Source: Owenia fusiformis
Taxonomy: Eukaryota
DNA length: 64,000 bases
NCBI GenBank assembly: GCA_903813345.2
Contig: CAIIXF020000001.1
Coordinates: 27,094,001-27,158,000, forward strand
Reading direction: 5' to 3'
Shown here piece by piece: positions 1-61,740 of the stretch. Under the pieces are notes generated by a model. It made no database searches and was not told the origin of the DNA. It saw only the letters and a program-made list of their open reading frames with translations. How positions within the stretch are numbered: position 1 is the stretch's first letter; the number at the start of each line of letters is the position of its first letter. Both the position numbers and the translations under genes were made by a program.

Positions 1-8
1 GGTTACGC

Positions 9-475
9 TTGATCGATTTCTGCTAATTTTTGGAGTTTAAGGCATTTTCACAAAATAGACACCCACCCACTATACAAAATAACACGCTTTAATAGGCATC
101 TGTTAATTTAACATGCCACTGATAAAAATATAAACCCCTACTAGATAAATAAATAAAAAAATGCTAACATTAACAGTTTTACAGCAGAACATTTTCGACC
201 AATCAAAGTGTATATGCAAATGAGCTGCTGAACCATTTCAATCAATCAGATCAGATTATTGCACTCTTTGACCCCACAACCGCCGCCGCCACCACCGCCG
301 CCACAACCGCCGCCGCCACCACCACCGCCGCCACCACCACCGCCACCACCGCCGCCGCCACCACCGCCGCCACAACCGCCGCCACCACCACCGCCACCAC
401 CGCCGCCGCCACCACCGCCGCCGCCACCACCGCCGCCGCCACCACCGCCGCCACCACCGCCGCCACCACCACCGC
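9..475 (+). repeat. Additional, slightly diverged copy of the inner part of the TIR plus a longer (CCG/CCA)n tract
   Basis: 9-275 is a direct repeat of ~1288-1550 with several substitutions and indels, followed by ~200 bp of triplet repeat. Confidence 0.85.
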
Positions 476-1594
476 CAACCTGCACCTGCACATGCCACTA
501 CCACCGGAAGTGACGTCATAGGTCACGTGCACCGGAAGTGACGTCATAGATCACGTGGTAAGATGATGCACCGGAAGTGGAAGTGACGTCATAGGTCACA
601 TGGTTACTGATATAACTGGTCAAAGGTTTCTGATAATTGATAAGAGAGAGATAATAAACTGATAAGACAGTGAAAAAGATAACTACCATGGTTTCTGATA
701 TAACTGGTCAAAGGTTACTGATAATTGATAAGAGAGAGCTCAATTGATAAGATAATCAAACAAACACTGTTAAGGTAACCTGGTGACTATGTGATAAGTT
801 ATCTTGTCTACTTCATGGATGTTTCATGGTTATAGGTCAAAGGTGGATAACAAACTGATGAAACAGTAAAAAAGATAACTGCAGAACCATTTTAACCAGA
901 CGGGTTTCAACTTGCAGAATTATGTTAACCGATCCCAGTACAGTATGTTTCAACCAATCAGGTTTTGAGATGCGATCATTTTAACCAATAAGGGATAATA
1001 TGCTTGGACTATGTTAACCAATCGTGGTACAGTATATTTTCATCCAATCAGATATAAGAAAATCGACCAATAGGAGAATATTTGTACAATTTAACCAGTT
1101 CAGACAGGTATTGAAGTTTTTTAACCAAGAGTCAATTTAAAGCATTTTTCCAATCTTCACGCTTGAGTGATTTTGGATGATTTCTGGAGTTTGAGATATT
1201 TTTTCACCAAACGGTCACTTGATTCTTACTCCTGGGTCATTTTAAAGTATTTTTTAAAGTGTCACGTTTGGGCTATTTCAGTCACTGTTGATCGATTTCT
1301 GCTAATTTTTGGAGTTTAAGGCATTTTCACAAAATAGACACCCACCCACTATACAAAATAACACGCTTTAATAGGCATCTGTTAATTTAACATGCCACTG
1401 ATAAAAATATAAACCCCTACAAGATAAATAAAAAGTGCTAACGTTAACAGTTTTACAGCAGAACATTTTCGACAAATCAAAGTGTATATGCAAATGAGCC
1501 GCAGAACCATTTCAATCAATCAGATCAGATTATTGCACTCTTCGACCCCACCACCGCCGCCGCCACCGCCGCCGCCGCCGCCACCGCCGCCGCC

Positions 1595-1642
<48 letters not shown>
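476..1642 (+). repeat. Left TIR copy (lacks the outer 28 bp present in the right TIR)
   Basis: Starts CAACCTGCACCTGCACATGCC, pairs with 4933, and ends in a (CCG/CCA)n tract at ~1546-1642. Confidence 0.9.
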
Positions 1643-1689
1643 TTTTGTGCCTTTATCATATTTTATTCAACAGAGGGATGTATTAAAAC

Positions 1690-1697
1690 TATATAAG
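1690..1697 (+). promoter_or_regulatory. Putative TATA box of the ATPase gene
   Basis: TATATAAG ~55 bp upstream of the ATG at 1750, just inside the left TIR. Confidence 0.5.
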
Positions 1698-1749
1698 TGA
1701 AAAGCAGGCTTGATTCATTCATTCAGCGCAACCTCATCTACATGACAAC

Positions 1750-2931
1750 ATGGATTATATTTGCTCAGTGTGTTCTGGCACATTTGCCAGGAAGGATATT
1801 CTTCTGAGACATATGAGAAACATTCACAAAAAAGATGAGACTAACTTCGATCTCGACTCACCTATACAGTTCAGGCATCCATTTACTAAAATTGTTGCAG
1901 GTCCTACTGGATGTGGAAAGACAACCTATGTTGTCGACCTTATTGATAGAGCCGAACAATTAATCAATCCACCACCACAAAGAATAGTATGGTTCTTCAA
2001 ACAATGGCAGCCTTTGTATGCAGAAATAAAGAGAAAACAGCCTCATATCGAGTTTGTTATGGGACTTTGCGATGACTTGATGAAGCCCGATTACTTCGAT
2101 GGAAATGTGACCAATTTGGTTGTGATAGATGATCTCATGGCGGACCTTAACAAGGCAGTTACATTGCTATACACAGCGGGTTCTCATCACAAAAATATAT
2201 CCATTATCACGCTACAACAAAATATTTTCCCACCCAATGGAGAAAGCAGAACAATGAGCTTAAACAGCCATTACTTGGTTCTATTCAAGAACCCGAGGGA
2301 TCAAAGACAGATAAGTGTTTTGGCATCTCAAATGTATCCTGGAAAGACGCATACTTTACTCGATATTTACAGACAAGCTACGGAAAATCCATTTGGTTAC
2401 TTAGTGGTGGATCTGAAGCAAGAAAGTGAAGATGGTTCGAGGCTTAAGCCTAATGCATTGCAGCAAGTTGCAGAAAGTGTTCCATATACATCATTTCAAC
2501 ATTTTTATAACACGGCAGGGAGCTCATATGCTCAACAGAGGCAAGATATGTCGGAATTCCGACCAAATACCATTGTTCAACCAACTCAGATGGATGCTAC
2601 GTATCCAGGTCCAATGGATGATGTTACTCTAAGAAACTCCTCCGTTTTACATCTCCCTCATTGTAAAGACTGTGGAACAGTGTTGATTACCACAAAACAT
2701 GCAGACATACATCAAAAATATTGCCAATATGAAGACTCTGGTAAAAATGAACCCCATGCTGAAGATTTGAAGGAAAATTATACATTTTCTACTCTGAAGC
2801 AGAACGTGTTGGATGTATTGAAGAAGCTGACACTTTGTATGAAAAATACACTACCAGGGGATTACCAGAGAAGGAAATTACTCAAAAGCTCAAAGCAAAA
2901 CTTTATCCCAAAGCAAAATCTGAGTTTTTAA
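1750..2931 (+). CDS. C2H2 zinc finger + A32/FtsK-like DNA-packaging ATPase of Maverick/Polinton type
   Basis: N-terminal YICSVCSGTFARKDILLRHMRNIH zinc finger, Walker A GPTGCGKT, Walker B LVVIDD, and the NSHYLVLFKNPRD motif typical of Maverick ATPases. Intronless. A second Cys/His cluster (CKDC...H...C) lies downstream. Probably frameshifted near 2815. Confidence 0.88.
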   Translation: MDYICSVCSGTFARKDILLRHMRNIHKKDETNFDLDSPIQFRHPFTKIVAGPTGCGKTTYVVDLIDRAEQLINPPPQRIVWFFKQWQPLYAEIKRKQPHIEFVMGLCDDLMKPDYFDGNVTNLVVIDDLMADLNKAVTLLYTAGSHHKNISIITLQQNIFPPNGESRTMSLNSHYLVLFKNPRDQRQISVLASQMYPGKTHTLLDIYRQATENPFGYLVVDLKQESEDGSRLKPNALQQVAESVPYTSFQHFYNTAGSSYAQQRQDMSEFRPNTIVQPTQMDATYPGPMDDVTLRNSSVLHLPHCKDCGTVLITTKHADIHQKYCQYEDSGKNEPHAEDLKENYTFSTLKQNVLDVLKKLTLCMKNTLPGDYQRRKLLKSSKQNFIPKQNLSF

Positions 2932-3176
2932 ATGACTATGGTGAAATTCTGAGGTTATTTATTGAAGTCAAAGATACCGATGTACATCGAGAAATAGTAG
3001 AAGAAATTGAATTCTTAGTTGATCAAGACATGTCTCTGTCGAGAGCTATCAGAAAAACTTTGGCCAAATATTCTTATATCGCTGATGAAATGTTTAACGA
3101 TGAAGAGTCTATTGACGGACATGATTCAGAAGATACAGATACATCTGGTGAGATGGAAGAAGAACGTAGTGAATGA
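2835..3176 (+). CDS. Helical/acidic ORF, probably the frameshifted C-terminal part of the ATPase protein
   Basis: Has no ATG start (TTG). Its frame is open from 2763 and overlaps the end of ORF1. Protein-like composition with an acidic tail. Confidence 0.55.
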   Translation: MYEKYTTRGLPEKEITQKLKAKLYPKAKSEFLNDYGEILRLFIEVKDTDVHREIVEEIEFLVDQDMSLSRAIRKTLAKYSYIADEMFNDEESIDGHDSEDTDTSGEMEEERSE

Positions 3177-3271
3177 ACGTTTGGTAGTCCCTTTTAGTCA
3201 CTACGATGAGAATATAAAGAGAAAGCTTAGTCATGAGCATCAGATGTTTGAGAAAAAAGGAAGAAGCAACA

Positions 3272-3667
3272 ATGCCTAAGATAGTGCCTTATGTGGATGA
3301 CCCAGAAGTGTGGAAGAAGTTTATACGAGCCCAGGTAGAAGGCAGAGTCATCGAACATGCTGGATATGGTAAGCGAGGAAAACTCAAGTGGATACCAGTG
3401 TCATCAGTCCACGAACCAATTGTTCAACACGTCAGTCCCACTGAAGCTGTTTATCAGAGAGCAAAGGCAGAAATTGACAAGCAGCAGAAAGAAATGGCTG
3501 AACGGGATCGGCCATCAAAGAGAGTTTACAGACAAATGAGTGACAATGATTCCTTTGACCACACCTATAATGGAAATGTGATGAATAGACTTTTTAAGAA
3601 ACCTAAGAAAAAGAGGGATGTTATGGTGTATTCTGGCCCACCTGGAAAACGTCAACGCAGACAGTGA
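3272..3667 (+). CDS. Small basic Maverick-associated hypothetical protein
   Basis: ACAATG context at 3272. Contains YVDDPEVWKKF...VSPTEAVYQRAKAEI and a basic C-terminus (KKPKKKR, NLS-like). Followed by AATAAA at 3720-3725 and a GT-rich tract. Confidence 0.65.
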   Translation: MPKIVPYVDDPEVWKKFIRAQVEGRVIEHAGYGKRGKLKWIPVSSVHEPIVQHVSPTEAVYQRAKAEIDKQQKEMAERDRPSKRVYRQMSDNDSFDHTYNGNVMNRLFKKPKKKRDVMVYSGPPGKRQRRQ

Positions 3668-3719
3668 TCATTTACAATGGACTATGAAATAATTTGTATA
3701 AATGACAATATGTATATTA

Positions 3720-3725
3720 AATAAA
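3720..3725 (+). terminator. Putative polyadenylation signal of the element transcript
   Basis: AATAAA 53 bp after the stop at 3667, with a GT-rich downstream element before the right TIR. Confidence 0.5.
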
Positions 3726-3777
3726 CAACTAAAGCACTAAAATACATTTTACTGTTATTGTTGGGTTGTTGTTGAAA

Positions 3778-3795
3778 GTGGTGGCGGCGGCGGTG

Positions 3796-3837
<42 letters not shown>

Positions 3838-4961
3838 GCGGCGGTGGCGGCGGCGGTGGTGGGGTCGAAGAGTGCAATAATCTGATCTGATTGATTGAAA
3901 TGGTTCTGCGGCTCATTTGCATATACACTTTGATTTGTCGAAAATGTTCTGCTGTAAAACTGTTAACGTTAGCACTTTTTATTTATCTTGTAGGGGTTTA
4001 TATTTTTATCAGTGGCATGTTAAATTAACAGATGCCTATTAAAGCGTGTTATTTTGTATAGTGGGTGGGTGTCTATTTTGTGAAAATGCCTTAAACTCCA
4101 AAAATTAGCAGAAATCGATCAACAGTGACTGAAATAGCCCAAACGTGACACTTTAAAAAATACTTTAAAATGACCCAGGAGTAAGAATCAAGTGACCGTT
4201 TGGTGAAAAAATATCTCAAACTCCAGAAATCATCCAAAATCACTCAAGCGTGAAGATTGGAAAAATGCTTTAAATTGACTCTTGGTTAAAAAACTTCAAT
4301 ACCTGTCTGAACTGGTTAAATTGTACAAATATTCTCCTATTGGTCGATTTTCTTATATCTGATTGGATGAAAATATACTGTACCACGATTGGTTAACATA
4401 GTCCAAGCATATTATCCCTTATTGGTTAAAATGATCGCATCTCAAAACCTGATTGGTTGAAACATACTGTACTGGGATCGGTTAACATAATTCTGCAAGT
4501 TGAAACCCGTCTGGTTAAAATGGTTCTGCAGTTATCTTTTTTACTGTTTCATCAGTTTGTTATCCACCTTTGACCTATAACCATGAAACATCCATGAAGT
4601 AGACAAGATAACTTATCACATAGTCACCAGGTTACCTTAACAGTGTTTGTTTGATTATCTTATCAATTGAGCTCTCTCTTATCAATATCAGTAACCTTTG
4701 ACCAGTTATATCAGAAACCATGGTAGTTATCTTTTTCACTGTCTTATCAGTTTATTATCTCTCTCTTATCAATTATCAGAAACCTTTGACCAGTTATATC
4801 AGTAACCATGTGACCTATGACGTCACTTCCACTTCCGGTGCATCATCTTACCACGTGATCTATGACGTCACTTCCGGTGCACGTGACCTATGACGTCACT
4901 TCCGGTGGTAGTGGCATGTGCAGGTGCAGGTTGCAGGTCGAAAGGCCCGCCGTATACTACT
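3778..4961 (-). repeat. Right TIR, complete with ACTACT terminus
   Basis: Reverse complement of 476-1642 plus 28 terminal bp (CAGGTCGAAAGGCCCGCCGTATACTACT). Begins with a (GGC/GGT)n tract. Confidence 0.9.
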
Positions 4962-5797
4962 TGGGAGTATCGATTGCCGAGTCGTATCCAATGATCCTGG
5001 GCCTATCGTAAAATGAAAGCTTTGAATATGTTGTTGCCTTTAAAAATGTATCTATTTTCCATGTATGCTACTAGAATTTGTGCACATACCTTATAACGAT
5101 CGATAATGGCAAAGGAAAATCCTGTAATTCTTCGTCATAATTTCTCCTTCGACGTCCGCCATTTTATATTAAACCGGAAGTTTTTCTCTGACGTCCGCGC
5201 AATGTTTTTTCACTTTTATTTCAGATTACGCTTCGGATTCAACATTTAATGCTTTCTAATATTAATTAAGTGTTTTCTATCAGAAAGATTTCATAAAAAG
5301 ACTCACACTATCAGAGATTTTATCGATTCGAGCAGCCAGAAAAATTAGTTTCAATTTCACCCGCTAGGTGTTTCGACGTCGACTTGGAAAGAATTTGAAA
5401 AATCTATGAGTGGGACTCCTTGTATGGAATTGTAGATTCTAAACGATTTGCCAGTTCTACTGGTTGATGAATATTGCCATATGCATACATTTTTATAAAA
5501 TAGGAATAAGGAAGAAGATGTTGGACCAAACTTCACCCCGATAGCTCAGAAAAGGTAAAATTTCTCCATTTTTCTCTCCACAGACCTTAGGCTTTACTGA
5601 GTCTCCAATTTTATTGTAGACGCTGTTCGCCGTTGGCGTCTGTAACAAATGGCAAGTGGTGACATTTTGCATGTTAATGTCTTGTTATCCCTTTTTATCT
5701 TATGTAGCTCCACTTCCAAACGATGGGTGTGCCATGGTTGTAATGCTCATGAAGAAGCATATGGGTAATAAAGCTTATGTTTCTCATTTTCCCATAG

Positions 5798-6325
5798 GTA
5801 CAGGGGATGAGAATGTTCTGAATGAAGTTCAGATAGAACCCGTAGCCAATGCTGACTGTGCAGCCATGTGGGCAAGATACCCTAACCCCGGTCCATGGAT
5901 ATATGACTTCCATATTTGTGCAGGAGATGGCATTAGGGGTTCGTGTTCCGTAAGTGTCCCAATGTCATCTTGAAATGCGTGTGTGGAGATCAAGAATAAC
6001 TTTGAAATATACAGAAATGGGTTCGTTAGAATGTAGTTACATATTTTTTATTGGGTTGTTTTCGTGGGGAACAAGATGGACTGATAAAAACGTTCTCTCT
6101 GATATCACTTTGTCTTAGAATAACTCTATATCTATTCTATTACGCATTTGTTCTTGCTTGTAGGGAGACTCCGGTGGACCAATGGTTTGTAGGCGTGGGT
6201 CTCAGTGGATATTAGCCGGTGTATCTTCATGGGCCATGCGAGGATGTGACACCCCTGGCTTTCCAAGTGTGTACTCTAGGATCACCAGCTTCCTTGCTTG
6301 GATCAATGAGAACACAAACGTTTAA
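5798..6325 (+). CDS. S1 (chymotrypsin/elastase-like) serine protease, last two exons (5798-5949, 6164-6325)
   Basis: AG/GT-bounded exons read ...VLNEVQIEPVANADCAAMW...HICAGDGIRGSCS | GDSGGPMVCRRGSQWILAGVSSWAMRGCDTPGFPSVYSRITSFLAWINENTNV*, including the catalytic GDSGGP. Upstream exons were not found in the window. Confidence 0.92.
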
Positions 6326-7621
6326 AGCTAGCGAGGCGGTCGTCTTTTTAGGCACAAATGTATTTTATTTCAGTTCAGTTACTGTCCAGCTGAATATTAA
6401 TTTTGACATAGAATCAGCACCTTCAACATATTTTTCCACTGATAGACATGCACAGTGCATACTAAACCATGTCAGCAACAATCCGCCAACTAACAATTCA
6501 GTATCTTCGAGAATATATAAATTGGCTGTATAATCTGGTTGACCAGCAGTAAATAGTGTATTTGGCACTGTCATGCCATCACCAGGATATTCCTAAAACG
6601 ATTTATCGTAGTGGTGGACCATGGGCTTTCAACTAACTCTAAATTGCAAGCCCATGGGTGGACCAAAAGATCATTCAAATACAAAGACGAAACTTCATAT
6701 ATTCACATTGATTATGTAATTACCTTATTATTACCAGTTATCATTAGTTTTTTGTTTAATCCAGCTCAGTATGAGACGCCAAGTAGAAAGGAATCAAATC
6801 CCTTCACACCACTTTAACCGGAATGGATTGGGTTGGTCTGGTACCCCCTTTACATCAGTTCGTGCAGTGACTAAATACAGCCATTTCTCTACCATTTCTC
6901 TTTTTTATAGAGTTAAAATGCCTGGTTAAACAAGATGAATTTTTAATGGAAGCATAAGTGGATGGCAATACCAAAGAGACAAGAGTGTTTACATTGTCTG
7001 GTTATACGTGTACATTGGTTTACTGGGAGCATTTATTATTCTCGCCTGAATATTGATTGGCTAAATGGGTGTCAGAAATAATATATTTTATTAAGGGCTT
7101 GGAAAAAGTCCTTAATATTCCCACGTAGTCCAATCAGGATTGATTAGCTGGTCAGTCGTGGACTGGTGGAAGGCAGGAAACACCATATAAGTAAACATTG
7201 AGAAATTATGTCATATTAACATTTGGATAATTATCCAAGATCTGTAAGGATTGTTTCAGTAATGATCTCTGTTTATTAGGCGTCAGAGGATTTTCTTCTT
7301 TATTTTGATTGATTAGACAAACTGTTCATGTGTCCGCAGAGGATTTGTCATCTAGATTCACATGATTGTTTCGACTTCACCCTTGAAAGTCGAAGATGAT
7401 ATCATTGGATATACTTTTAACTTGTCAACAATCATTTTTTGCACATTTTTGAAATTCAAAATAGAGTTGGATTTGAAAAACGCAGTGATTACTAAGCTCA
7501 GCTCTGTGGCTCTTTACTAGTACTCTGTGTGACCATTTTTCTCATCAAGAGTTAATTTATTTTTCTTGTTAAATTGGAATTTTGTTTAATGATTTATTTT
7601 AGATTTCATTGTGAAATCAAG

Positions 7622-8743
7622 ATGAAAACTGGGACACGGTATTGTCTTTTTGTGGGTGGAATGATCATCAGTGTTTTGATATGTGGAATAAATCTGATGA
7701 AGAAGTGGAATATGGATGACGACACGGAACAAGGAGAAACACTTCCTGCTATTCCAAATGCTACCGAGAGGAGGGACATTGTAAGTGTCAGTATTAAAAG
7801 GAGACAGGAAAATGAATTAGATGAGATCTCCAAAAATGCCGGTGGTCGTAAAAGTTGGATAGTAACGTCGACAGTGTTTAATAAAACTTATATAAAAGAA
7901 ACGACACGGCCAAGTGCATTGGGTGAGGTCATAGAACATGCGAAGATGGTTGCTAAAGAAGCTCGAGGAGGCATAGTTGCTGTGACGATGGTCAATGAAG
8001 CGTATCTTGAACTGACGTACAGTTGGTTGTGTAACACTGCTAACATGAGTGTACATGATAATGTACTTATTATAGCCACAGATGAAACTACTTTGCAAAG
8101 ATTGCAGAAAGACTGGCCTCGCATCAATACAGTTTTGTACTCAATCAACAATTCTGAACTATCCTATAACGAAGTAGGATATGTTCGGTATATGTTGATT
8201 AGAACTCGGTTTCTAGTTGCATTACTCATTAGCAAAATACAGGTCCTATTGTTCGAAGTTGATGCTATCTGGTTTTCCTCGCCATTGCCTTTGTTACAGA
8301 CTCTAGTCCATTACGATCTTGTTGCTGCTCAAATTTCCACGAGGAACCACACTATAGCTGGTGGCTTCCTTTTTCTACAACCATCAGCAATACAGGTATT
8401 AAACCGAGTTGTGTACAGGCTTCAAAAATTTATGAAAATCTTCTCTAATATTGGTGTTAACAAACAGTTGCCCGTGGTGGTCAATGATCAAACAATTCTG
8501 CAAGAAGTTGTGGTATCACAACCAAATCTGAAGTACAAACTACTGGATTTTGACATTATTGCAGATGGACAATGGTACACACGTACAAATGCGCTAAATG
8601 CGACACCTATTGTTTTAAATAACAACTGGATAATTGGAAATAGAGCAAAGATAGCAAGAGCCAAAAAATTTGGACATTGGTTTCAAGACGAGAGCGGTTC
8701 TTGTGACTGGATCCGTGTTAGAAAAATAACAAAGATTGTTTAA
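7622..8743 (+). CDS. Type II membrane glycosyltransferase, nucleotide-diphospho-sugar transferase (GT77/RGXT-like) family
   Basis: N-terminal TM anchor (YCLFVGGMIISVLICGI), then a stem. Motifs: NEAYLELTYSWLCN, VLLFEVDAIW (DxD variant), AGGFLFL, NDQTIL, NNNWIIGNRAKIARAKKFGHWF. Single coding exon with a splice acceptor at 7601-7602 before the ATG. Confidence 0.85.
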   Translation: MKTGTRYCLFVGGMIISVLICGINLMKKWNMDDDTEQGETLPAIPNATERRDIVSVSIKRRQENELDEISKNAGGRKSWIVTSTVFNKTYIKETTRPSALGEVIEHAKMVAKEARGGIVAVTMVNEAYLELTYSWLCNTANMSVHDNVLIIATDETTLQRLQKDWPRINTVLYSINNSELSYNEVGYVRYMLIRTRFLVALLISKIQVLLFEVDAIWFSSPLPLLQTLVHYDLVAAQISTRNHTIAGGFLFLQPSAIQVLNRVVYRLQKFMKIFSNIGVNKQLPVVVNDQTILQEVVVSQPNLKYKLLDFDIIADGQWYTRTNALNATPIVLNNNWIIGNRAKIARAKKFGHWFQDESGSCDWIRVRKITKIV

Positions 8744-11700
8744 TTAATTTTTGAATCGTCTCTTGTAGAGCCTGTACAGACTTACCTTCTTCTAAGGCCA
8801 CCGTATCGTGGCCTTCCTGGAAAGATAATTTCCTGCATGAACAATTGGTCATGTCGTAATCATAAAATTTGAAATCATATGTCCGCCATTTTTCCACATC
8901 ACAATTTGAATTGCGAGTTTTGGTCTTATTACCTCACCAAAAATTCCAAAACACACATGGAGTGATCAGTGTATTAGTTCACATCTTCTGGATCGCTAAC
9001 TTAGAATTTACAGCCAGTTACTAATGTCAGACGTTAACGGCATTTCGTCCAGTTTTCGAATATCGCCATTTTTCTTGGAGCCATTTTGTTTTAATTTTAG
9101 ACAAAATCCTGACGAAATCATGTCATATGTCATAAATGAGCCGAGCCGGTTCCGTTTTAATTTATGATTTATTTATCTGGCGATTTTTAAAATATTCAAT
9201 AAATTTATGACACGGCGGCCAGCTTTTTTCAATTGGAGTTCACAGTATTCCAGATGAAATCACCTCTAGCCAAGTATTGGCTAGAGACTCGAGTAAGTAC
9301 AGACTATTGTTTGAAATGAACCTAGATTATTAGCCATGGCATATGCAAATTAGAACTGTTTTTATGTGGCGACATATTACCACGGTGACCAAGTGTTAAC
9401 AGTGGAGATTGTCCCGGACGTGTTTTTTCAAACGATTTAGACGTATTTTTGGAAAACTTGAGAGGTAGGTTGATAAAGGACGATGTGCAATTATTGACAA
9501 ATATCCCTATGGTCAAAATGAATCATTCGTAGGTGTAACATGAAGAATAAAATGTCATATAATACTTTGGAAAATATTAAAGTGCTCGGACACACATAAG
9601 CTGAGATATGGATCATTTCGTTCAGTAAGGTTGTATTGACTTACATGGGGATGTGCACCATTGACTTAACATGAGGATATCAGCAGATCCCAATAGAGGC
9701 CATTGGTATCAATTGATTATCACAGAAATGCCAAAAATACACTATGACCTGAATCGATTGCAAACTTAACTAGACATGTAAATTGAACAAGTTCAATTTA
9801 AGACTCCAGATTTAAAACTTTTTTTAAGCTGAGTCATCCAGTACTTGTAAGCTGAGTCATTCAGAATAAGCTGAGTCAGCTAGAATATAGACATTTAGAC
9901 AACTTTTAAGAAGGCTATCTTCGACTCTATTGGCTTAACATGGGGATATCATCATATCAACTTTTCGAGACTTCAAACCGCTATAACTATCTAACCAGAA
10001 GTTAGATTGAAATTTGGTTTAAAGATTCTGATTTCTGAGAAAATTCTACCCTTAATTCATAACTCATACGTTAAATTTGGAGAATTTTTTATTTTGACCT
10101 ACATTTCGGACACCATATCTCAAAAGTGGGTCAAAAAACTTTCTGACGGCAGAAGGCTAACACTATAAGCACACTCTTTGCTACCTGTATACAAAATTTT
10201 GAACCAAATCCTTGAAGTGTAATGTCAGAATCGCAAAAATAAGGAAAAACTATGAATTTGACCTAGATCTTGACCAAGGCATTTTTGCGTCCAAATTTTA
10301 AAGCTAGATAGCCTTCGAGGTCCCCTCCTTTTATAGGCTTTCAGAATATTAAGCTGTACTCAGTCTATATCTGGTATTTTACACTTCAAAAAATCCTTTT
10401 TCTCATTGACATAACATGGGGCACCAAATTTAGCGATTTTTGAGCTTTCAAAACGCCATAACTTTCAAACCGGAAGTCGGATCGAAATTTGGTTTGCAGA
10501 TCCGGATTCCTGACAAAATTCTACCCCTAATTCATAACTCATACGTTAAATTTGGAATTTTTTTATTTTGACCTACTTTTTGGACACGCCATAACTTCCG
10601 AACCGGAAGTCGGATTGAAATTTGGTTTGCAGATTCAGATTCCTGAGAAAATTCTACCCTTAATTCATAACTCATACGTTGAATCTGGAGAACTTTTTAT
10701 TTTGACCTACTTTTCGGACACCATATCTCAAAAGTGGGTCAAAATACTTTTTGACGGCAAAAGGCTAACACTATTAGCACACTCTTTGCTACCTGTATAC
10801 AAAATTTTGAAGTAAATTATTAAAGTGTAGTGTCAGAATCGTAAAAATAAGGAAAAACTATGAATTTGACCTAGATTTTGACCTAGGCATTTTGGTGTCC
10901 AAATTTCGAAGATATGTAGCTTTTGAGGTCCCCTTCTTTTATAAGCATTCATTATGTTAAGCTGTACTCAGTCAATATCCTGTATTTTACACTTCGAAAA
11001 AGTCTTTTTTCCAATTGACTTAACATAGGCACCAAATTTAGCGATTTTTGAGCTTTCAAAACGCCATAACTTCCGAACCGGTAGTCCGATCCAAATTTGG
11101 TTTGCAGATTCGGATTCCTGAGATCATTCTACACTTATTTCATAACTCACATGTTGAATTTGGAGAGTTTTTTGTTCTGACCTACTTTTCGGACGCAATA
11201 TCTCAAAATCGGTAAGAGTAATCAAAAAACGATTTGCCTTACGGAATTAGCGTTTTTTCCAAGGAACATGATGAAAAAAACCCGGAGCAAAAATATTGAA
11301 AGACGACTGAGAAAAGTGGTGAATTAGTGAAAATCCAAGATTTGACCTAGTTCTTGACCTATGACCTAGATAGAAATTTGACCTAATTTCCCAGAAAGCC
11401 GGATACAGTTCTTAGTTAACCATGTTAGTTGGATTAAGTAAGCTGTTATAGTTGACGAGAAATTTGGTGAGGAGGAAGAATAATAACTAGACATGTAAAT
11501 TGAACAAGTTCAATTTAAGACTCCAGATTTCAAACTTTTTTCAAGCTGAGTCATCCAGAACTTGTAAGCTGAGTCATTCAGAATAAGCTGAGTTAGCTAG
11601 AATATAGACATTTAGACAACTCTTAAGAATGTTATCTTCGACTACATTGGCTTAACATGGGGATATCATCATATCGACTTTTCGAGACTTCAAACCGCTA

Positions 11701-25585: not shown

Positions 25586-26554
25586 TTAAGAGTACTTTTT
25601 ATCTACTTGAGCTTTCACCCAAGTATACGTCTCAAGCAGACCGTCATAAAGAGATCGACTCGGTTTCCAGCCTAATTTCTGTTGTATAAGGGTGTTGTCT
25701 GAATTTCTACCTCGCACTCCAAGAGGACCACTGATGTGACGGACTTCGATTCGTTTTCCAGATATTTTGATTATCTTATCAGTCAGTTCATTGATTGTGA
25801 CCATTTCTTCTGAACCGATATTCACGGGTCCTTCAAAGTCGGAATTCATCAGCCTGATAACACCTTCTACACATTCATCTACAATTAGAAAGGATCTCGT
25901 CTGTTTGCCATCGCCAAATATTTCTATAGAACCACCATCGTTTGTCATGGCGACTTTCCTACAGATTGCGGCAGGTGCCTTTTCCCGTCCTCCCTCCCAT
26001 GTACCATAAGGACCGAAGATGTTGTGAAAGCGTCCTATACGAACATGCATACCATGGTTACGCGCGTAAGCCAAGAAGAGGCGTTCACTAAACAGCTTCT
26101 CCCAGCCGTACTCAGAATCAGGCGCTGCTGGATAAGCAGAATCTTCCTTGCAGTTTGGTTTTTCTGGGTCAAGTTGGTTGTATTCTGGATACATACACGC
26201 GGAGCTGGAATAGAATACCTTCTTGATGTCCAACTTCTGACAAAGGTCGCAAACATGGAGGTTAATCATAGCCGAATTCTGCATGATAGCTGCATCATTC
26301 TCACCGCTGAAAACGAACTCAGCGCCACCCATATCTGCAGCGAGTTGATAGACCTCATCGATATCGCTAGTTATGATCTTCTTCATCTCGTTCAAATCTC
26401 GCAAATCGGCAACAACAAATTCGTCTCCCATCTCAGCAAAAAATTCATGTCGTTTAATATCGGCCGCTCTAACCCAATATCCATCGCGCTGAAGCCTTTT
26501 CACCAAATGGCCAGCGATAAATCCTCCAGCGCCCAAGACGACTGCTCTCTTCAT
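25586..26554 (-). CDS. GME: GDP-mannose 3',5'-epimerase-like extended SDR (NAD-dependent epimerase)
   Basis: Rossmann motif GAGGFIAGH, then LAADMGG, YSSSACMYP (catalytic Cys), YGWEK (YxxxK), RFHNIFGP, GGREKAPAAICRK (catalytic Lys), GDGKQTRSF and GVRGRNSDNTLI, all hallmarks of GME. Intact 322 aa, no coding introns. Confidence 0.9.
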   Translation of the reverse strand: MKRAVVLGAGGFIAGHLVKRLQRDGYWVRAADIKRHEFFAEMGDEFVVADLRDLNEMKKIITSDIDEVYQLAADMGGAEFVFSGENDAAIMQNSAMINLHVCDLCQKLDIKKVFYSSSACMYPEYNQLDPEKPNCKEDSAYPAAPDSEYGWEKLFSERLFLAYARNHGMHVRIGRFHNIFGPYGTWEGGREKAPAAICRKVAMTNDGGSIEIFGDGKQTRSFLIVDECVEGVIRLMNSDFEGPVNIGSEEMVTINELTDKIIKISGKRIEVRHISGPLGVRGRNSDNTLIQQKLGWKPSRSLYDGLLETYTWVKAQVDKKYS

Positions 26555-35303: not shown

Positions 35304-38300
35304 CTAAAAAAGATCAAAACCTTTAATAAAACAGTGTGGAGTATCTTTATTATTGTTACATGTATGTTTTCTAGTTCCAATATCAATTTCATAACTCAAT
35401 AGGAATATTATGCTTATTGATATCATTTTGTTTTAGACACTCACTGGCGAAGATTTTATATCAAGAAGTGCCTAAATCTAGGTCTAGTCTAGTTAGAAAA
35501 AAATACAATCAATGATGGATTGTTGAAAACAAAAAAAACATGAAACAAGGCATTAACATGCAAAATATCACCACCCACCATTTGTTACAGACGCTGAATG
35601 CAAGAGGCCAAAAACCATCCAACAAATTGGAGACTTTAACAATATGTTACCACTTCTGGTGGTGACATAAAAATGATGTGGCCATTATCCAATCAGCATA
35701 GGTAGTTAGGAAATTGACACTACATTTTCTGTCATAACTACCCTACTTTACTACATTACGTTAATTTCAATCAATGAAAGCTACTTTTATCAAAAAATCT
35801 CATGTAGTAGACTAAAACGACGTACTCTGAGCAGCAGCATCTTCATTCTCACAGTTTTTGCCCGATATACCGGCAGGACATCTATAATCAGAACACAGAT
35901 CTCACTATTACTATTTAGTTTGAAACAACATGTTTAGTTTTTGGATGACTTCCTAAAATTATTAAATTTAAAGGAATATCCATGCTCTAATAACATTCTA
36001 TACAGTGTTTTAACATTCAAACATACATTCCTGGGTGAGGAAGTGTTACATACAATTATATGTGAATACCCTATTATATGTTCAATTCATTAAAATCATT
36101 TATAAACATAAGACGATTTCTTACATGCATCGATATGAGCTCCTTTCTTTTTGACATTGTCCACCTTTTTGACATGGATTACTCTTACATACATCTGAAA
36201 ATAAACAAATGTTTGAAAAAAGAGTGCTTAAATACAAAAAATTGTCATAAAAATACACAAAATCAACATAATTATTATTATTATCATGAGAATTATTGAT
36301 ATCTGTGTTATTATTGATTCCATGTACATGGGTGTGATATATATTTCAATATATATATGTGATATATATTTTTCAATTTTCCAAATATCTCTTGCCTGAT
36401 ACATTTATTAGTCAGCACATGGTAAGAGAAGGGTTGACTCTACTGGGTAAATCCACTTTTTTCCATCAACATAAAAAGTGATTGAAGTGTTGAATTTAGT
36501 GTAAAACCTTTGAGAAGAGCCCTTACCTTCACAATAAGTGGTATTTAATGTTAAACCTTTGAAAAATCCCCTTACTTTCAAATTATGTTGAATTTAGTGT
36601 GAAATCTCTAAGAAGACTCCTTACCTTCAAAATATGTGGTATTGAAAGTGTGAAACCTTTGAGAAAACCCCTTACCTTCACAATATGTTATATTAAAAGC
36701 TTTGAATCCAAAGTTACAGTTACAGGAGAAGCTGCCTGGAAGATTAGTACAATTGCTGTTTGTGCAAACACTGGGCTCCAAATTACATTCATTGATATCT
36801 GAAATAAAACAAGTTCACAAATTATTGAGTTGTTTTTTCGAATTCATAGTTCATTTCATTATCCAAACCATTGGGCACATCTTACCAATTTAAATTGCAT
36901 GACATTTACATTAATGAAAATTAGTGCAAATATGGTATATAACTGTACAGTGTACAAGATGATTTCCTGGATTATTAAACTCTAAACAAAGACAAATGTA
37001 TTTCTAAACCTTGATTTGTAGTATGAAATGGAGTTATCGTTGTATATTTTAATACTCTCTCAATTCTTCTGTATTTCCACACACCAATTCATTTCATTGT
37101 GCAGGATTTTTAAAAACATGCTGACTTGCTTTAGACTTCTGTAGTCTTGCACCAGGACCTTGTGTTCCCTATCCCCTCTCAGGCTTTGATAGAGGTACAT
37201 ACAGGGGCTTCATACAAGACTTTTCTGATTAACAATGCCATACAAATTTGGGCATACATGTATACAATATTTTGTATGTGTACCTTTGCAAATATTTGCC
37301 TCACTGGGTTTGTCTCTGGGTTCGAACCCTGTTTTACAGGAACAGGAAAAGACTCCTTCAGAGGAAGTGCAGTTGGTTGACTGCTTATCACAGTTGTTGT
37401 CTAGGGACGAGACACAAAGATCCTTTTCTGTAATGACAAACATACATGTATATTTCAATTATAAAACAGGACAGATGGACGGCTTTCCTATATCTCGTTC
37501 GGTGGGATAACAAGCCTTAAATTGATGCTGCTTGCCTCCCAGCTAATTACAGGACTTGTCATAATTGAATAGCATTGTATGTTCTCATTGTATTCATCCG
37601 CCATTACAAAAATGAATTCTGTAATATCTATTTTTGAATACATACCTTGTACAGTAGATGTGCTACTATTGACCCCAATAAGAGTGGTATCAGAAACTGT
37701 TAGGGTGCAAGGGCTTGAGGGACAATCATCTAAACGATCTTGCAAAATCTGATCAACCGTTGGGATATCTTGGCGTCCAGAGAAGAAAATGTTGAATCTG
37801 GCAATAATACTTCCTTGGCTGTAAATACACAAATTAACAATCTTAGCATGCTGTTAAAATGAAAGTCAAGATGAAGTCAGCTTAAAATATTTCATTTGAG
37901 CTTTTTATTTGAAATGATTTTCTTTACCCTAAAATCGCAAGAACATGTTAAATGATCAAAATATCCCATAACAGCCAGCCAGGTTGTGAGTTTTGGAATG
38001 ACAAAGGAACACCAATAAACATTGAAATAGTAAGGGCCTTACTCTAAATAATAAGATACATTATACATTAGACATATTTTTCACTCTATTTCTAGAATTC
38101 TACACTGTACCTGAACTCGTAGACCTGGGAAGAGACGTAACTGGTCTTCAATGTACTATTCTTATATATACCATCCACCTAAAACACATACCAACATATG
38201 TTCTTAAAATATCAATCATGTATAGTTGAATCCATTGTTATATAGAGTATAAATGGCATGTTACAAGTCGAGGGATACAGGAGCACAGGCCCGTAGCCAG

Positions 38301-41300: not shown

Positions 41301-44300
41301 TGTATTTCTGAGGTCATATCCTTGTCATTTTGACGCAAAAAAGCTACTTAAAGGAGGGCATGTAAACTATAAAAGACATCATAAAAATATAGGTAAATTT
41401 CATCCAAAATACTTGAGAGTTGGTGAGTTAACATAACTTTGGATGATCTTTCCAATGGTATATCACACTAGGTACTGTCTTTTAAGGCTTTAGCTGTAGC
41501 AGGGGGGACGGGACTTATTTGACACCCTGTATAACCTTGCCCATAACAGTATAGGAAAGTAGCACAAAATCAATTCTAGACAAGTGATCATTACTTTCTG
41601 TGCAAAAATATTTTCAGGGCTTGTCAACTTAGAATAAAAGAAGAGATTTTTAGAAGGATTAAATAAGATACAAAGTTGAAAAAGAATATTTAGCTGGTTT
41701 TGTAATTCTTAATAGCTCCTCACCTAATGCTATATGCAAAGTTGAGAGTTGATGACATCACTTCCTGTGTGAAATTTTAAAAGATGGCAACTTACTGGAA
41801 TTGAGCATCACATTTCTAAGTGATCAAATTTGACCATATCAAAACATTTTTGCGTGTTTTGCTAAACATGGCAAGCAAATATATGGTTATAGCTACCATA
41901 TGAGGAGAGAGATGGTTTGGCAAGGAATATTCCTTTAAAGAGTTAGATGTAGATAGCTGTTCATGTTGGAGGTTTTATTTATAATATTAAGCATGTGTTT
42001 AAATCAATCAATCCTTTAATATGAGTACATCTCTTTAATCTTTAATCTGGTTTACCATATTTCCTTAGAGATAAGGATAATAGATTCCATTTGCATTGAT
42101 AGATATCATAATATAATACATGTTGTCATTTTAACTCATTGTCGGATTTACACTTACTTTCATTTGTTTCCACCTCATTTTCATTTAAGTAGTCAAGGTT
42201 GCATTGTGAAGGATTTTTACAAGCACAAACATAGATGGCAGGCCAGTATTCTGATGATGCATTTTTGGAATCAGTGGCGTAAAACTTGGCGTATCCAGAG
42301 ATGTTGCGATACTCAATTGTAGGGTTCCAAAATATTTCGCCTGTTGTTGAGTCTAAAATTATTATGTAAATGATGTATAATATTCAACATTTTAAAAAGT
42401 TTATGCAGTGTATCTATTTATTGCAAGAAAAATATGAACATATGAACATAAAACTGTGACATTAAATGCTCATAAATAATATCTAAAGGGGCTCAATGCC
42501 TTTCTCTTATCCTAAAAACACCAAAATAAAAAAAATAAAAAAAACAACATAACTTGCCCCATCAACAGAATTACAGTGAAACCTTGATATCTGAACACCT
42601 GGCTGATCTGAATGCATTCTAATTCAAACATTTTCGGCTCTATCTTTTCCTCCTATTGACTCCTTTTGTAAGAAAAACCTGAAATCTGAACACCTCCTTA
42701 TTTGAACAGTGAGCACTCATATTTGAAAAAAACTGACCTGTCTAAAGTTATAAAGCTATGTGGTCAATAGTAATATTCCTTGAGAATGCATTCATATTTT
42801 TTCAAAATTCAGAATCTTGTGGATGCAAAACCTTGAAATCCAGAATGTCCAGTCTAAAACCCAATCAGATCTCGACAATTCTCTGCTTTGTCATTTGATA
42901 AATGATGACACCTATCAGCACAAAAGGACCAAAATATATACACAATATATGTGACAAAAATACTTACTTATTGTTACATTAGGCAGGGTTGTTTCAATTG
43001 AAAACACAACAGTGACATCTCCAGTAAGGTTAACATGGAGCTTCCTTATATATCTCTCATTTATGGTGATGTTCAATGCATCTTCTATCTCAACAAACAC
43101 AGGGGGCCTGTGCTCTAAAATAACAAACATATAATTATGCTACAGGAATCATAAAAACTATACACACTTTGGCAATCATTTTCTGGTTTTATATCATAAT
43201 CTTCTTATCAGGTAAATTATAAGAGCATTTCATGGTTTGAATTAAGGTTGATTGTTCATCTTTTTAACTACATCAATTTGAATTCTATAATTATTATATT
43301 TACCTAAGATACTAGTGTCCTCTGCAATACGATCGCCATCAACAATAGTTTCTTTAGCAACCTTATCATTATTTGTAGCCATATAATCAACCTGACACTG
43401 AAGGTTGTCACCACAAGTCTCTTTAACCTTATCAGGTACGACTTCCGTTTTGTCCCCTATTCTATCAGCAAAAAATATTGGGACAAAACTTGGAACATTG
43501 TAGTCTTCAAACCTCTTATCCGTGTATGAAAACCGAGAATCTGTCTCAGACGTTAACATCCCTAAAAGTACAGTTATTGCTATGAGGATTGTCATCGCAT
43601 CTATAAGGGGTATGTGACGGAAGTCAAGGCAGTACGTAATATTAAAAAAACATGTTAAATAAATACTCAATACAGTGGAAATATCATGGAAGATATTAAA
43701 ACAAATAAAAATAGAAGAATTCATCTTTTCACTTTTACAGCAACATTTTCATTTTCAGGCAAATTCATGATTTTTGGAACCTTACTCTAAATAAAATGTG
43801 AGTAGTGTGACCAATAATAGGCTTTATATTTAGGAATTTTTGATGATATTTAAAAAAAAATATTTATCATATTGAAAAACAAGTTTTGAAAATCAATAGT
43901 TTTTACTCACATGTTTGGCCATAATTGAAATAACCCTGTTCAGTTAAGTTGCCTCTAGTGAATTCTAGTTTGGTCCCATTTGGCATGAAGAGCTCTCCGT
44001 CACCATTGAATTTTCCCAGAAGTCCCTGGGTGTGGCCCTTATAGTATGTTGGCACAGAGACGACATATGTTAACAATCCTTGGCCAACCTTCACCTGCAA
44101 ATGTACATGTACTGTAGAATATGGATAATAAATATTTTCCTGATGATTAACTAGTAAAATGTTTGCTCATGACTGTCCTGTTTCCTCTAATTAGAAGTCA
44201 CATGGTAATTGATGAGAATGCGGTGCAAGTCTTATACATATCACAAAGGATGCCTTGTACCAACAGGCAGAATAAGAATATGTTAAGTTAATGAGGCAAG

Positions 44301-47300: not shown

Positions 47301-50300
47301 GAACAGGCACCAGGCACCAGCCAATGAATCGGAACAAATGTGACCCAGGCATTAGTAAGATGAAAATGTGTTTAATGCACAGGTGAAATAAATAAATAAA
47401 AATATAATTAAGGTAGAAAGCTGGTCCAGATACATGTACACAAGTTCTGAAATAAGACAGCTGAATATATCAACATGTATAGAAAAATAAGGTTACAACA
47501 CAGGATTATAAATTGATATTGAGCAGTTTACTATATGTCAGAAATCCTTATTATTAGCTCTCTCAATTGAATGAACTGTATCATGTAAGTATACATTCAA
47601 GTATTAATTGAGAAATCACAACAAAAAAGCAATGTTTGATTTTTACAAAGTACCTTTCAAACGCCCAACTTACCAACATTTGACCTCTGGTGGACTGTAG
47701 ATATTGGCCTTTCGTATATACTTCTGCTATTATTTCCACCATCCGAGTGCCCAATTAGAATTTGTCTGCCACTGTTGTTGGGATTCCAGCCCATACCAGA
47801 GGGGTGGTAGTTATATAATACAAATGATACTCGACTATCTGTCACCATAACAACTTGAAATGTGGCATTCTGGAACAAAAAGGTTGTGGAATTCTCAGAA
47901 TTATGTCTCCTTATATTATTTCAAGTAATCAAAGATAAAGAGAAAATGGAGATAAGGAACCAGGGCAAGGAATCATTAACCTCTTGAATCCCAGGCTCCA
48001 CAATCGCTTTCGAAATCAAATAATTTTTCATTTTTGCCAGCTTTTGACATTTTACTACATATAAACAACAGGTGATGCTCAATTTAGTGAAAATAGTCGG
48101 CAGTGATCATTTCTACACATTTTGAAACATTAACTCCAATTTGTGTAAATCCGATGAAAATTCTCCAAATTAGAGCAATTTCAGTGAGAAAAAATTTGTA
48201 ACAGATTATCTTGTTACTCTGGGTTACAAATTCATTTCAAAGGTGATGAGAAATCCTGTCAGTGAGTAGTCAAGAGGTTAATATAAATATTAATTCCAGA
48301 ATTTTGAACATTAACTTTACTGGAAAAGGATGAAAAACAACTTATTACTCAATATGATATCAAGTGGGAATCACAATGGTTTCAGGTGCATATCTTTTGT
48401 ATGAAAACATGATGTTATTTACTGACATAATGTCAGTTGACTTTCAATAATAAAGAAAAATGGATACAATGGAATACAATACAATAGGAATATAGCAAAA
48501 ATGGCAAACAAAATCTCACCTCATCCTGGGTTTGGCCTGGATATGGTGGCACCTTATACCATGTTGCTACGGTTACATGTGATGCTGTAAAACTACTATC
48601 CACACCATATTTGGTACCATCCTCACTAGCTCGTTCTAAAATAACTTTTGCAGTTTGGTTGGAATCTATAACATTGTAGTTATATATGGACAAGTAACCA
48701 TATTTTGTGGTATCAATGTCTGTAAACCAGGGTGCAATCAAGGCTTCATCTCTGGGGAATCGATTGTTCCAGGGGGGTTGGGTATAACTGTATCGTTGAC
48801 CAAGGGATATGTAGCCATTCATGGACACCTAAAGTAACAAACACATTTATATTTAAAAGACATATGTATAAGGTAATTGCTTTAATTATGATGAAAAACA
48901 TAAAGGTTTATTCGTTAATTGGAATTTTGGAATGCATGTTCTTGTGTTTCACAAAGTACAAGAATAATACAGAATTTGTTTATTTATTTGCTTGTATCTT
49001 TTATTTGTTTGTTAGTTTCTATATTTCCTTCTATGTTATTAGTCAATCAGCTTCATCATTTCTTTGTTTATACTTTCTATATTTTTTGTTGTGTAGGAAT
49101 CTAGACATTGTGATGGATAAATGTGCTTTGGCATTTTCAATACTCACAAAAAGTCGATGATAAATCTTTCCAAAGTAGGATATTCCTCCCCTTATGTAGA
49201 AAGGTCCATAAACAGGATCATCGCCCTTATTTACCTCTCCAATGCCTTCATAGGGGTACAGAGGTATCTCTAGAAATACAAGAGAGTTTAGAATTTAATA
49301 AGACATGGTCACTCCACAGTGAGGGCATTATGGTCAAGTTATATTTTTATAACAATTCACATGAAGATACATGCATTAAAAGGCAGAAGAAAGGATAAAG
49401 AAAAGTTGAGATTAAGTTAATCGAGATATTAATTTTTTCCAACAGTTCTGACTTTATTGAGTTATCCTTATTTAAAGATACATAATGCCATCGATTTATC
49501 TCCCGGACAATCAGTGATGTTCCATTATAATTGCTTATATAATATCTTACATACTTTAGATATATCTTGAGACAAACTTATGGGTATAGTTTTGCCGATA
49601 TATTGACAAAATCAACAGAACAACCAACTGTCAGAATTGAACACAATTGAGTTTGATCGCGGCAATCGAGGAAAAATTCCGTATACGGAGTTCCTTTGGT
49701 TACATGATAATATTGATTAACAAATTTAAAGGTGCAACAATGAGTGCAGAGGGGACATTCAACGATCATGGACAAGTGTCAAAATATATTTAAGTTTGGT
49801 TATTTCTTCAAGACTAACATATATTTTCATTATCCTCAAAGAAACACCCTGGATAAACATTGTTTCAGCTGATATTCCTCTTGAAACATGGTGAATCTTA
49901 AAAATCTATAAGCGGGACTCCCTCTATAGAAGCTTTGAACTGAATTTACACTTCTTAATGCTGAAATTGAAAGTTTATCCATACATTTTAAGAAAATAGG
50001 TATGTCAAAGAAGATGTTAAGCCAAAGGTTGCCCTGATACTGTAGCTCAGAAAAAGTAAAATATTTCGAATTTTCTCTCTACAAGCCTTGTTGTCCCTTT
50101 AACAACCAATCAGATAACATATAGATGTCCCTCAGGTTTATTTAAGTTTCAGATAATTAATTTGGATGAAAATAATTCGACCATTCAGCACAATGGCAAA
50201 ACGCCAAAAATTAGCATATAAAGCAGCAGATTTGGGGACTTCTTCGTTGGTAAGTTGAAAGGTGAATATGTGGTACAGCTCAACATGTAATCAAGGGGTC

Positions 50301-61275: not shown

Positions 61276-61740
61276 TAGCTGTTTCTGTTACACTTGCTTT
61301 TGTTGCTCCTAATTGTAGTTTGCTACAGGAAACTGTTTCTCTGAGTAATATTAGGCTATCAGGTGTAATACCAGACCAACCCCACTTATCTTTGACACAT
61401 TCTGAACAAATAAAGACACCCATAGATAATGAGATTATCTCTGCTTTTATACATGTTCCTGGCTGAGTCTTTCCTAGTATAGGCCTTGCATCATGTATAT
61501 GTTTACCATTATCATCGTTCACCAAGAGTCATTGTATACATACAATAATGTCATAGGTTAACATTGTTCTGCTATTTTCCAACATTGATGGTTTCAAATG
61601 TTCATTATTTGTATTGTTGTATGTGTGCTTTGATTCCTCTGAAGTTTGAACTGAAATGTATTTTGATATCTGCATTCATTATTTTATGGCTTCAATTTAG
61701 ATTTTCTTATCATGTCTGGAGAGACCTGGGAAATATCATA

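Follow-up and report, generated by a model that had tools for sequence, protein, structure and literature searches.

Structure of the locus

The DNA analysed here is a stretch of 64,000 nucleotides (nt) from the annelid Owenia fusiformis (GenBank assembly GCA_903813345.2, contig CAIIXF020000001.1, positions 27,094,001 to 27,158,000 of the forward strand), referred to below as the window and numbered from its first letter. Close to its start, up to position 4961, the window carries a small element related to the Mavericks/Polintons, in which two long inverted arms enclose a cassette of two genes, one coding for a predicted packaging ATPase of a long form and the other for a small basic protein, termed ORF3 after its open reading frame (ORF). 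The features of the element and its edges are as follows; functions of the transcription signals are putative.

1..273, plus strand: inner part of a third, partial arm copy (L'), oriented as the left arm and running off the window start
274..476, plus strand: (CCR)n microsatellite of 203 bp that closes L' and is fused to the cut left arm (Tandem Repeats Finder periods 27/15/12)
476..1644, plus strand: left inverted arm, without its outermost 28 nt; inner end (CCG)n at 1548-1642
502..594, plus strand: three copies of GGAAGTGACGTCATAG (containing TGACGTCA, beside CACGTG-like boxes) at the outer arm end; mirrored at 4815-4903
1645..3774, plus strand: unique cassette of 2130 bp between the arms, with no repeat partner in the window
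1690..1697, plus strand: TATA-like box TATATAAG, 53 nt before the ATG at 1750
1750..2931, plus strand: ORF of the long-form packaging ATPase, with a C2H2 finger, an FtsK/HerA-type (A32/IVa2-like) ATPase and a second finger-like CxxC..H..C
2835..3176, plus strand: ATPase C-terminus (helical domain plus acidic tail) in a shifted frame, placed by a profile match and by alignment to the homologues P0002, P0128 and others
3213..3219, plus strand: TATA-like box TATAAAG, 53 nt before the ATG at 3272
3233..3667, plus strand: ORF3, with a conserved N-terminal part of ~70 amino acids (aa) and a basic tail; likely start ATG 3272, as in the annotated relatives P0121 and P0127
3720..3725, plus strand: AATAAA polyadenylation-like signal, 53 nt after the ORF3 stop
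3775..4961, minus strand: right inverted arm, complete to the terminus ...ACTACT (4956-4961); inner end (CGG)n at 3775-3867
4962..4967, no strand: TGGGAG, the first six flanking bases, which would be half of a 6-bp target-site duplication if one exists

Inverted arms and termini

The arms at 476-1644 and 3775-4933 are inverted relative to each other and match in BLAST over 1169 bp with 98.97% identity. The near-identical terminal inverted repeats (TIRs) of 1.17 kb proposed in an earlier sequence-only reading of this DNA were thus borne out, as was its estimate of about 2.1 kb of unique interior. Base-by-base comparison, made on a three-way alignment of the left arm, the right arm and L', revealed that over 476-1588 of the left arm (1113 nt) a single 1-nt indel (723/4687) is the sole difference from the right arm, the remaining 19 differing columns lying in or at the (CCG)n inner end, 1589-1644.

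The right arm outreaches the left by 28 nt, and its end at 4961 reads ...TATACTACT / ...CCGTATACTACT, followed by TGGGAG. The 18-nt string at this terminus occurs once in the window (0 expected). Its (ACT)2 is one of the two Maverick end motifs, the right end being the only one visible in the window. Vertebrate Mavericks end in (AGT)2/(ACT)2, the commonest motif, or in (AG)3/(CT)3, and Mavericks have 6-bp target-site duplications and a gene module pPolB-ATPase-PM-PZ, according to PMC8097293.

The outer part of the arms is rich in short repeats. All six window matches of GGAAGTGACGTCATAG lie in the arms, three in each, where 0 would be expected, and Tandem Repeats Finder describes this region as a 28-bp tandem unit. 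Each arm also contains an 88-bp direct repeat, GATAAG-rich stretches and a row of CCAAT-like boxes, the latter not being enriched over the window as a whole (28 found, 39 expected). BLAST of the window on itself revealed no second copy of the element elsewhere in the 64 kb, and no exact match to the 18-nt terminal string or to a 23-nt arm repeat was found among the IMG/VR viral contigs.

On the left side the structure is more complex. L' aligns over window positions 2-368 with 1281-1642 at 90-97% (BLAST: 9-365 with 1288-1642 at 93%), and outside the microsatellite it is ~96% alike to the arms in the three-way alignment. Since the left arm is short of 28 nt and fused via (CCR)n to L', the element is not neatly bounded on this side, contrary to what had been proposed from the sequence. 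Of the suggested limits, 476 and 4961 with an ACTACT terminus, the right end at 4961 holds, but position 476 is no terminus of the element, 28 nt being missing there, and the true left boundary lies beyond the window start.

Genes of the cassette

A zinc-finger ATPase and one or two small proteins, with TATA and polyadenylation signals, had been read in the cassette. The signals are present at 1690-1697, 3213-3219 and 3720-3725, and the ATPase and ORF3 stand as genes, but the supposed additional small protein (2835-3176) proved to be the C-terminal domain of the ATPase, displaced by a frameshift. The ATPase ORF contains the C2H2 finger at aa 3-26, a P-loop and weak matches to the Pfam families Adeno_IVa2 and Pox_A32. 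Intact long-form relatives, 440-580 aa in length, consist of the ATPase followed by an acidic stretch, a helical domain and an acidic tail, and a profile of such C-terminal domains matches window positions 2763-3173 with an E-value of 1.5e-37. The frame is lost at ~2815-2835, the last ~35 codons of ORF 1750-2931 being out of frame; because the C-terminal domain is present but in another frame, the ATPase gene of this copy is broken. A contig from another run, X1, has a length difference at the frame-break site.

The structure model was that of an intact homologue, P0128, which is 64% identical overall and 81% identical in the ATPase domain. Its pLDDT (predicted local distance difference test) is 85.8, and both the ATPase (residues 32-244) and the helical bundle at the C-terminus are modelled with confidence. 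Fold-search matches, which cover the ATPase domain, residues 32-244, and not the bundle, include among solved structures the STIV2 B204 packaging NTPase (Foldseek E 6e-6; VIA Z 14.1, root-mean-square deviation 3.5, 179 aligned), VirB4 (Z 14.5), HerA and FtsK. Among viral models adenovirus IVa2 is the best match (E 5e-10), and A32-like, adintovirus FtsK-like and virophage ATPases are also found. Within the family, 50 of 67 members match Pox_A32 and 17 of 67 Adeno_IVa2; an adenovirus-type protease match occurs in two of the 67, and in none of the 14 long members inspected. By its modelled fold the ATPase domain belongs to the FtsK/HerA-type packaging ATPases.

The ORF3 reading frame is intact in this copy. 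Its family is tiny, with three close relatives and seven representatives at E ≤ 1e-3 among 1.84 billion proteins, of which one, P0253, a 1106-aa repeat protein, was taken as spurious. Family members have in common the ~70-aa head and a basic, K/R/S/T-rich tail, a composition suggestive of a putative role in binding or condensing DNA. At the curated cut-off ORF3 matches no Pfam family. Its structure model is of poor quality (pLDDT 53.7), and ORF3 is unlike the small ORFs located 3' of the ATPase in canonical Mavericks.

Absence of other Maverick genes and lineage of the ATPase

Profiles for pPolB (built from six Maverick pPolB ORFs), rve integrase and major capsid protein (MCP) were searched against window ORFs of at least 50 aa at E ≤ 1e-4. 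None matched in the entire 64-kb window, and none was found by Pfam in the cassette ORFs, in agreement with the sequence-only reading; a Pfam scan confined to the cassette ORFs detected neither penton nor protease. The same pPolB profile detects a fragment in the related locus L009 at 5.8e-82. Since polymerase, integrase and capsid genes are absent across 64 kb, the element is non-autonomous.

The ATPase was compared with 106 related loci, found on short metagenome contigs and on contaminant contigs of prokaryote metagenome-assembled genomes (MAGs). Short ATPases (~205-280 aa, 47-52% identical) occur in the order pPolB, ATPase, small ORF, rve integrase with chromodomain, capsid, protease, and a Maverick gene lies nearby in 48 of 50 short-form loci with informative flank. 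The long form is a Maverick gene too, as follows from L009, in which a long-form ATPase is located between pPolB and integrase. However, in the long-form set (119 rows, see below) a Maverick gene was found in one of eight informative loci, compared with 48 of 50 for the other rows, indicating that the long-form gene is usually solitary; L002 and L051 have ~10 kb downstream without any Maverick gene. Clusters of long-form proteins have up to 113 members at 90% identity. No ORF3-like ORF is present in the 106 loci, and no relative of the ATPase was found among IMG/VR viral contigs with either a single-protein or an alignment query.

Phylogenetic trees were built with 87 of the 106 loci, leaving out L090 and L092-L106 (near-copies from one MAG, plus L105) and three with under 150 profile positions. 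In the FastTree phylogeny of 329 ATPase domains, a single set of 119 rows (support 96) contains the window together with all 76 long rows, but none of the 53 short rows with Maverick neighbours. An IQ-TREE phylogeny of 64 rows is less clean: 26 short rows form one group (92), and the window joins P0128 (99) and P0002 (95) within a group of 23 that includes L009 (support 83 in the Shimodaira-Hasegawa-like approximate likelihood ratio test, SH-aLRT), while the finger-bearing L002, L004, L005, L046 and L051 fall weakly (78) on the short side. The ATPase lineage, the long arms and the published end motif together make the Maverick/Polinton descent of the element secure, as the sequence-only reading had proposed.

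Several of the related loci have features of their own. A Maverick pPolB ORF of 1536 aa at L007:2436-7043 has two N-terminal C2H2 fingers, so finger fusions in Mavericks are not restricted to the ATPase. At L006:1559-3178 a long-form ATPase adjoins a 147-aa ORF, with BIR (IAP-type) and PC4-like genes on the opposite strand, which may be host genes or accessory genes of an unrecognised element. The only inverted repeat that self-BLAST found among the 106 loci, in L078, was rejected as a TIR pair, being an inverted duplication of the ATPase gene itself: L078:1357-3554 is a head-to-head long-form ATPase duplication with 155-bp arms at 2129-2283 and 3409-3554, and the C-terminal domain is also found on its minus strand at 1357-2055.

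Copy number, expression and divergence

Reads and contigs of other runs bearing the same species label were compared over window positions 1-10000. Both DNA reads and contigs were found across the cassette, and they carry fixed differences. In X1 the summed contig word depth, which is not equal to copy number, is 840-2111 on the cassette against 54-123 on the single-copy flank at 6013-8684, and reaches ~2100-3000 on the inner arm and up to 29,788 on the outer arm. In X24 the raw DNA read depth is 14-20 on the cassette, ~59 on the outer arm and ~2-8 on the inner arm. On three further Owenia fusiformis contigs, 35.8-42.5 Mb long, the annotation includes ORF3 relatives with 95% identity, whereas the host proteins of the window lie on a contig of 62.2 Mb. 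The cassette is multi-copy in the Owenia fusiformis genome, and the locus is therefore not the single copy with a simple internal deletion that the sequence-only reading had named as its counter-case.

In X24, the depth is 0 at 6013-8684, which includes a coding gene, against 14-20 on the cassette (1671-3674) at 95-99% likeness, a pattern that may reflect a very shallow sample or a diverged lineage still carrying near-identical cassettes.

In comparisons between copies, synonymous changes make up 10 of the 12 differences listed for the ATPase part (P about 5e-4 for third positions) and three of the nine listed for the C-terminal domain and ORF3. RNA runs X21 and X22 have almost nothing on the ATPase, and a few reads at 3007-3674 in X21. 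RNA coverage of the right flank begins abruptly at 4962, where five molecules start at an adjacent depth of 20. Over the flank at 4962-5344 the RNA depth is 12-26 per strand class (X21, X22) and X24 DNA reads are scarce; the read starts at 4962 could be clipped reads from an insertion-free allele or reflect transcription from the element edge.

These data bear on the possibility that the unit is an immobile local product, formed when a Maverick end fragment was duplicated and inverted in place, or an assembly artefact in repeat-rich DNA. The left arm cut by 28 nt, its microsatellite fusion to a third arm copy and the near identity of the arms at a time when the gene is already broken would fit such an origin, as would the (CCG)n junctions, which are not spanned by short reads (these are cut at 271-505, 1539-1648 and 3773-3871). 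It is nevertheless distinctly unlikely, given that other runs contain both cassette and arms with increased depth, that ORF3 copies on three other contigs mean that the sequence has spread, and that the canonical (ACT)2 terminus of the right arm abuts unrelated flank, exactly at which, from 4962, the RNA reads begin.

The excess depth of the outer arm (669-1002) over the cassette in both DNA runs implies that more units share the outer arm than carry the cassette. This excess is the only hint in favour of another proposal of the sequence-only reading, that the element belongs as a segment to a multipartite, Maverick-like virus with common ends on its segments, and it would arise equally from full-length elements, solo ends or derivatives resembling miniature inverted-repeat transposable elements. 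No other cassette was seen between such arms, the terminal strings and the ATPase are unmatched in IMG/VR, and a literature search yielded no multipartite member of this virus group. The proposal has no positive evidence and is very improbable.

A pair of Maverick-derived genes domesticated by the host, outside any mobile unit, would account for the annotation of ORF3 relatives as host genes, for the few X21 RNA reads on 3007-3674 and for the mostly solitary occurrence of long-form ATPase genes. It is hard to reconcile with a multi-copy unit flanked by near-identical 1.2-kb arms and a transposon terminus, or with the broken ATPase frame, and the protein collection searched (30-688 aa) contains annotated ORF3 copies but no annotated host ATPase of >65% identity. 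Domestication is accordingly given very little credence.

Proposed origin and mobility of the element

The element is probably, though by no means certainly, a non-autonomous mini-Maverick that was mobilised in trans, the present copy being in decay. It retains the cis-acting ends, namely 1.2-kb TIRs with the Maverick (ACT)2, and one gene block, coding for the two-finger long-form packaging ATPase and the small basic protein. It would replicate and integrate only if a full-length Maverick in the same cell supplied polymerase and integrase, and these helper enzymes would recognise the ends of the mini element. The presence of (CCG)n at the inner end of one arm and (CGG)n at that of the other is suggestive of an origin of the second arm by fold-back copying, in which a snap-back or template switch at the microsatellite would have copied one end inverted. 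The copy in the window is a member of a dispersed, multi-copy family, but has itself lost its integrity, its ATPase frame being broken and its left end lacking the terminus and fused to L'.

Several observations weigh against a mobilised mini-Maverick. The extra arm copy at 1-476 means that the locus is rearranged or larger than described, and the left terminus, with any target-site duplication, lies beyond the window, whose sequence therefore does not demonstrate mobility of the 4.5-kb unit. The inner arm in X24 is shallower than the cassette, a misfit with a simple arm-cassette-arm family in that run. The structure of one copy was seen, and the other cassette copies could all sit in full-length Mavericks, while no autonomous Maverick with these ends was seen in a view confined to one 64-kb window. 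The 12 ATPase differences tested are the best-supported rows of a table with 262 further rows. Finally, self-BLAST and inspection of contig ends found a long-form ATPase between inverted repeats in none of the 106 loci, and inverted ends in none of the contigs; this is a weak negative, as short-read contigs break at repeats.

A more specific possibility is that of a true Maverick satellite, in which the packaging module would steer helper capsids to the mini genome and the fingers would read the arm repeats. Phage satellites redirect the packaging of their helpers in a comparable way. Purifying selection on the ATPase part between copies, as reflected in the synonymous differences listed, points in this direction, as do the paring of the cassette to a gene pair that has TATA and poly(A) signals of its own and the dense outer-arm repeats, with three copies of a 16-mer per arm against 0 expected. 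Long-form ATPases are moreover solitary in seven of eight informative loci, compared with two of 50 for short ones, and form large clusters at 90% identity, and all ORF3 relatives have the conserved head and basic tail. However, the same selection signal is predicted if the copies descend from full-length elements, the listed differences in the C-terminal domain and ORF3 are mostly non-synonymous (six of nine), the ATPase frame of this copy is broken, its RNA is next to nil in X21 and X22, and arm-bounded relatives were not found in the related loci. The element is known from sequence alone, and no particle, extrachromosomal form or helper has been observed. A satellite in this sense is unlikely, although it deserves consideration. 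The ATPase may have been retained by selection, as in a satellite, or incidentally, as in a deletion derivative.

A broader version of this possibility would make the long-form ATPase the hallmark of Maverick satellites that are widespread among marine invertebrates and undescribed as a class. Small, TIR-bounded and lacking polymerase, integrase and capsid genes, such satellites would encode a sequence-specific packaging motor and a DNA-condensing protein and take over the capsids of full-length Mavericks, as eukaryotic counterparts of the phage satellites. The excess of the outer arm would then reflect several distinct small cassettes built on a common set of ends, and the Owenia unit would be the first with both arms. 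This generalisation is speculative and on present data quite unlikely.

Other features of the window

An intronless gene at 25589-26554 on the minus strand encodes a 322-aa NAD-dependent epimerase/dehydratase of GDP-sugar type (PF01370, 8e-41), with an exact match to an annotated host protein; it lies in a G+C bump of 0.39-0.41, against ~0.33 around it, and has a bacterial-like look for an animal gene. A single-exon nucleotide-diphospho-sugar transferase (PF03407, 1.4e-18) at 7622-8740 on the plus strand also matches an annotated host protein exactly. On the minus strand, exon-like ORFs at 43245-43748, 48436-48828 and 60544-61287 include a mucin-4-type C8-3 domain, a NIDO domain and a 247-aa NxT/S-rich repeat ORF (NTTGIYDNTTG...), and are probably parts of one or more mucin-like host genes. 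Short interspersed repeats at 5345-5678 and 9687-10000 have very high depth in all four runs, with weak copies in the window, for example at 49893-50089 and 35544-35594. A tRNA scan of the window found none.

Comparison with known systems and significance

With autonomous Mavericks/Polintons (polintoviruses, adintoviruses) the element shares long TIRs, the (ACT)2 3' end and the ATPase lineage, and its ATPase gene, as read here, is likewise intronless with its own TATA and poly(A) signals. Autonomous Mavericks are 15-20 kb in length (PMC4028283), whereas the element is ~4.5 kb, or perhaps ~5.8 kb with the extra arm. It is devoid of pPolB, rve integrase, major and minor capsid proteins and protease, and its ATPase differs from the canonical short Maverick form in having two zinc fingers and a helical C-terminal domain.

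Non-autonomous Polintons are listed in Repbase. Adenovirus has IVa2 and packaging repeats beside its left inverted terminal repeat, and defective adenovirus genomes with inverted end duplications occur. The element resembles adenovirus in that IVa2 is the best viral structural match of its ATPase and in having inverted-repeat ends with repeated short motifs, and the inverted arm copy would resemble snap-back defective genomes. In contrast to adenovirus, particles, binding of the fingers to the repeats and an extrachromosomal form would for the element be predictions from its DNA sequence.

Insect Polinton derivatives lacking pPolB are reported to remain mobile (bioRxiv 10.1101/2025.02.07.637071). 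Like the element, they are TIR-flanked, lack the polymerase and need a helper, but as described there they exceed 12 kb and keep most virion and integrase genes, whereas the element has only the ATPase and one small protein. Transpovirons, linear DNAs of ~7 kb with TIRs at their ends, accompany giant viruses and virophages (PMC3671162, PMC5499653). The element is similarly small, TIR-bounded, poor in genes and reliant on the machinery of another virus, but transpovirons, in these accounts, encode a helicase and other proteins and no packaging ATPase and belong to a different host system; the likeness drawn here concerns general organisation. A literature search found no unit reduced to a packaging ATPase and one small protein, and no description of the long-form zinc-finger ATPase family.

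Many eukaryotic DNA viruses are considered descendants or relatives of Mavericks/Polintons, whose replication, packaging and spread are little understood. Should the element prove to be nothing more than a decayed deletion product, it would be a matter of routine repeat annotation. Molluscs, cnidarians and this annelid commonly carry long-form zinc-finger ATPase genes in multiple copies, and the mostly solitary occurrence of these genes (a Maverick gene in 1/8 against 48/50 loci) points to a sizeable family of Maverick-derived genes or elements. A mini element consisting of ends and a packaging module would define the minimal cis-acting ends and provide a natural system for finding which proteins act in trans.

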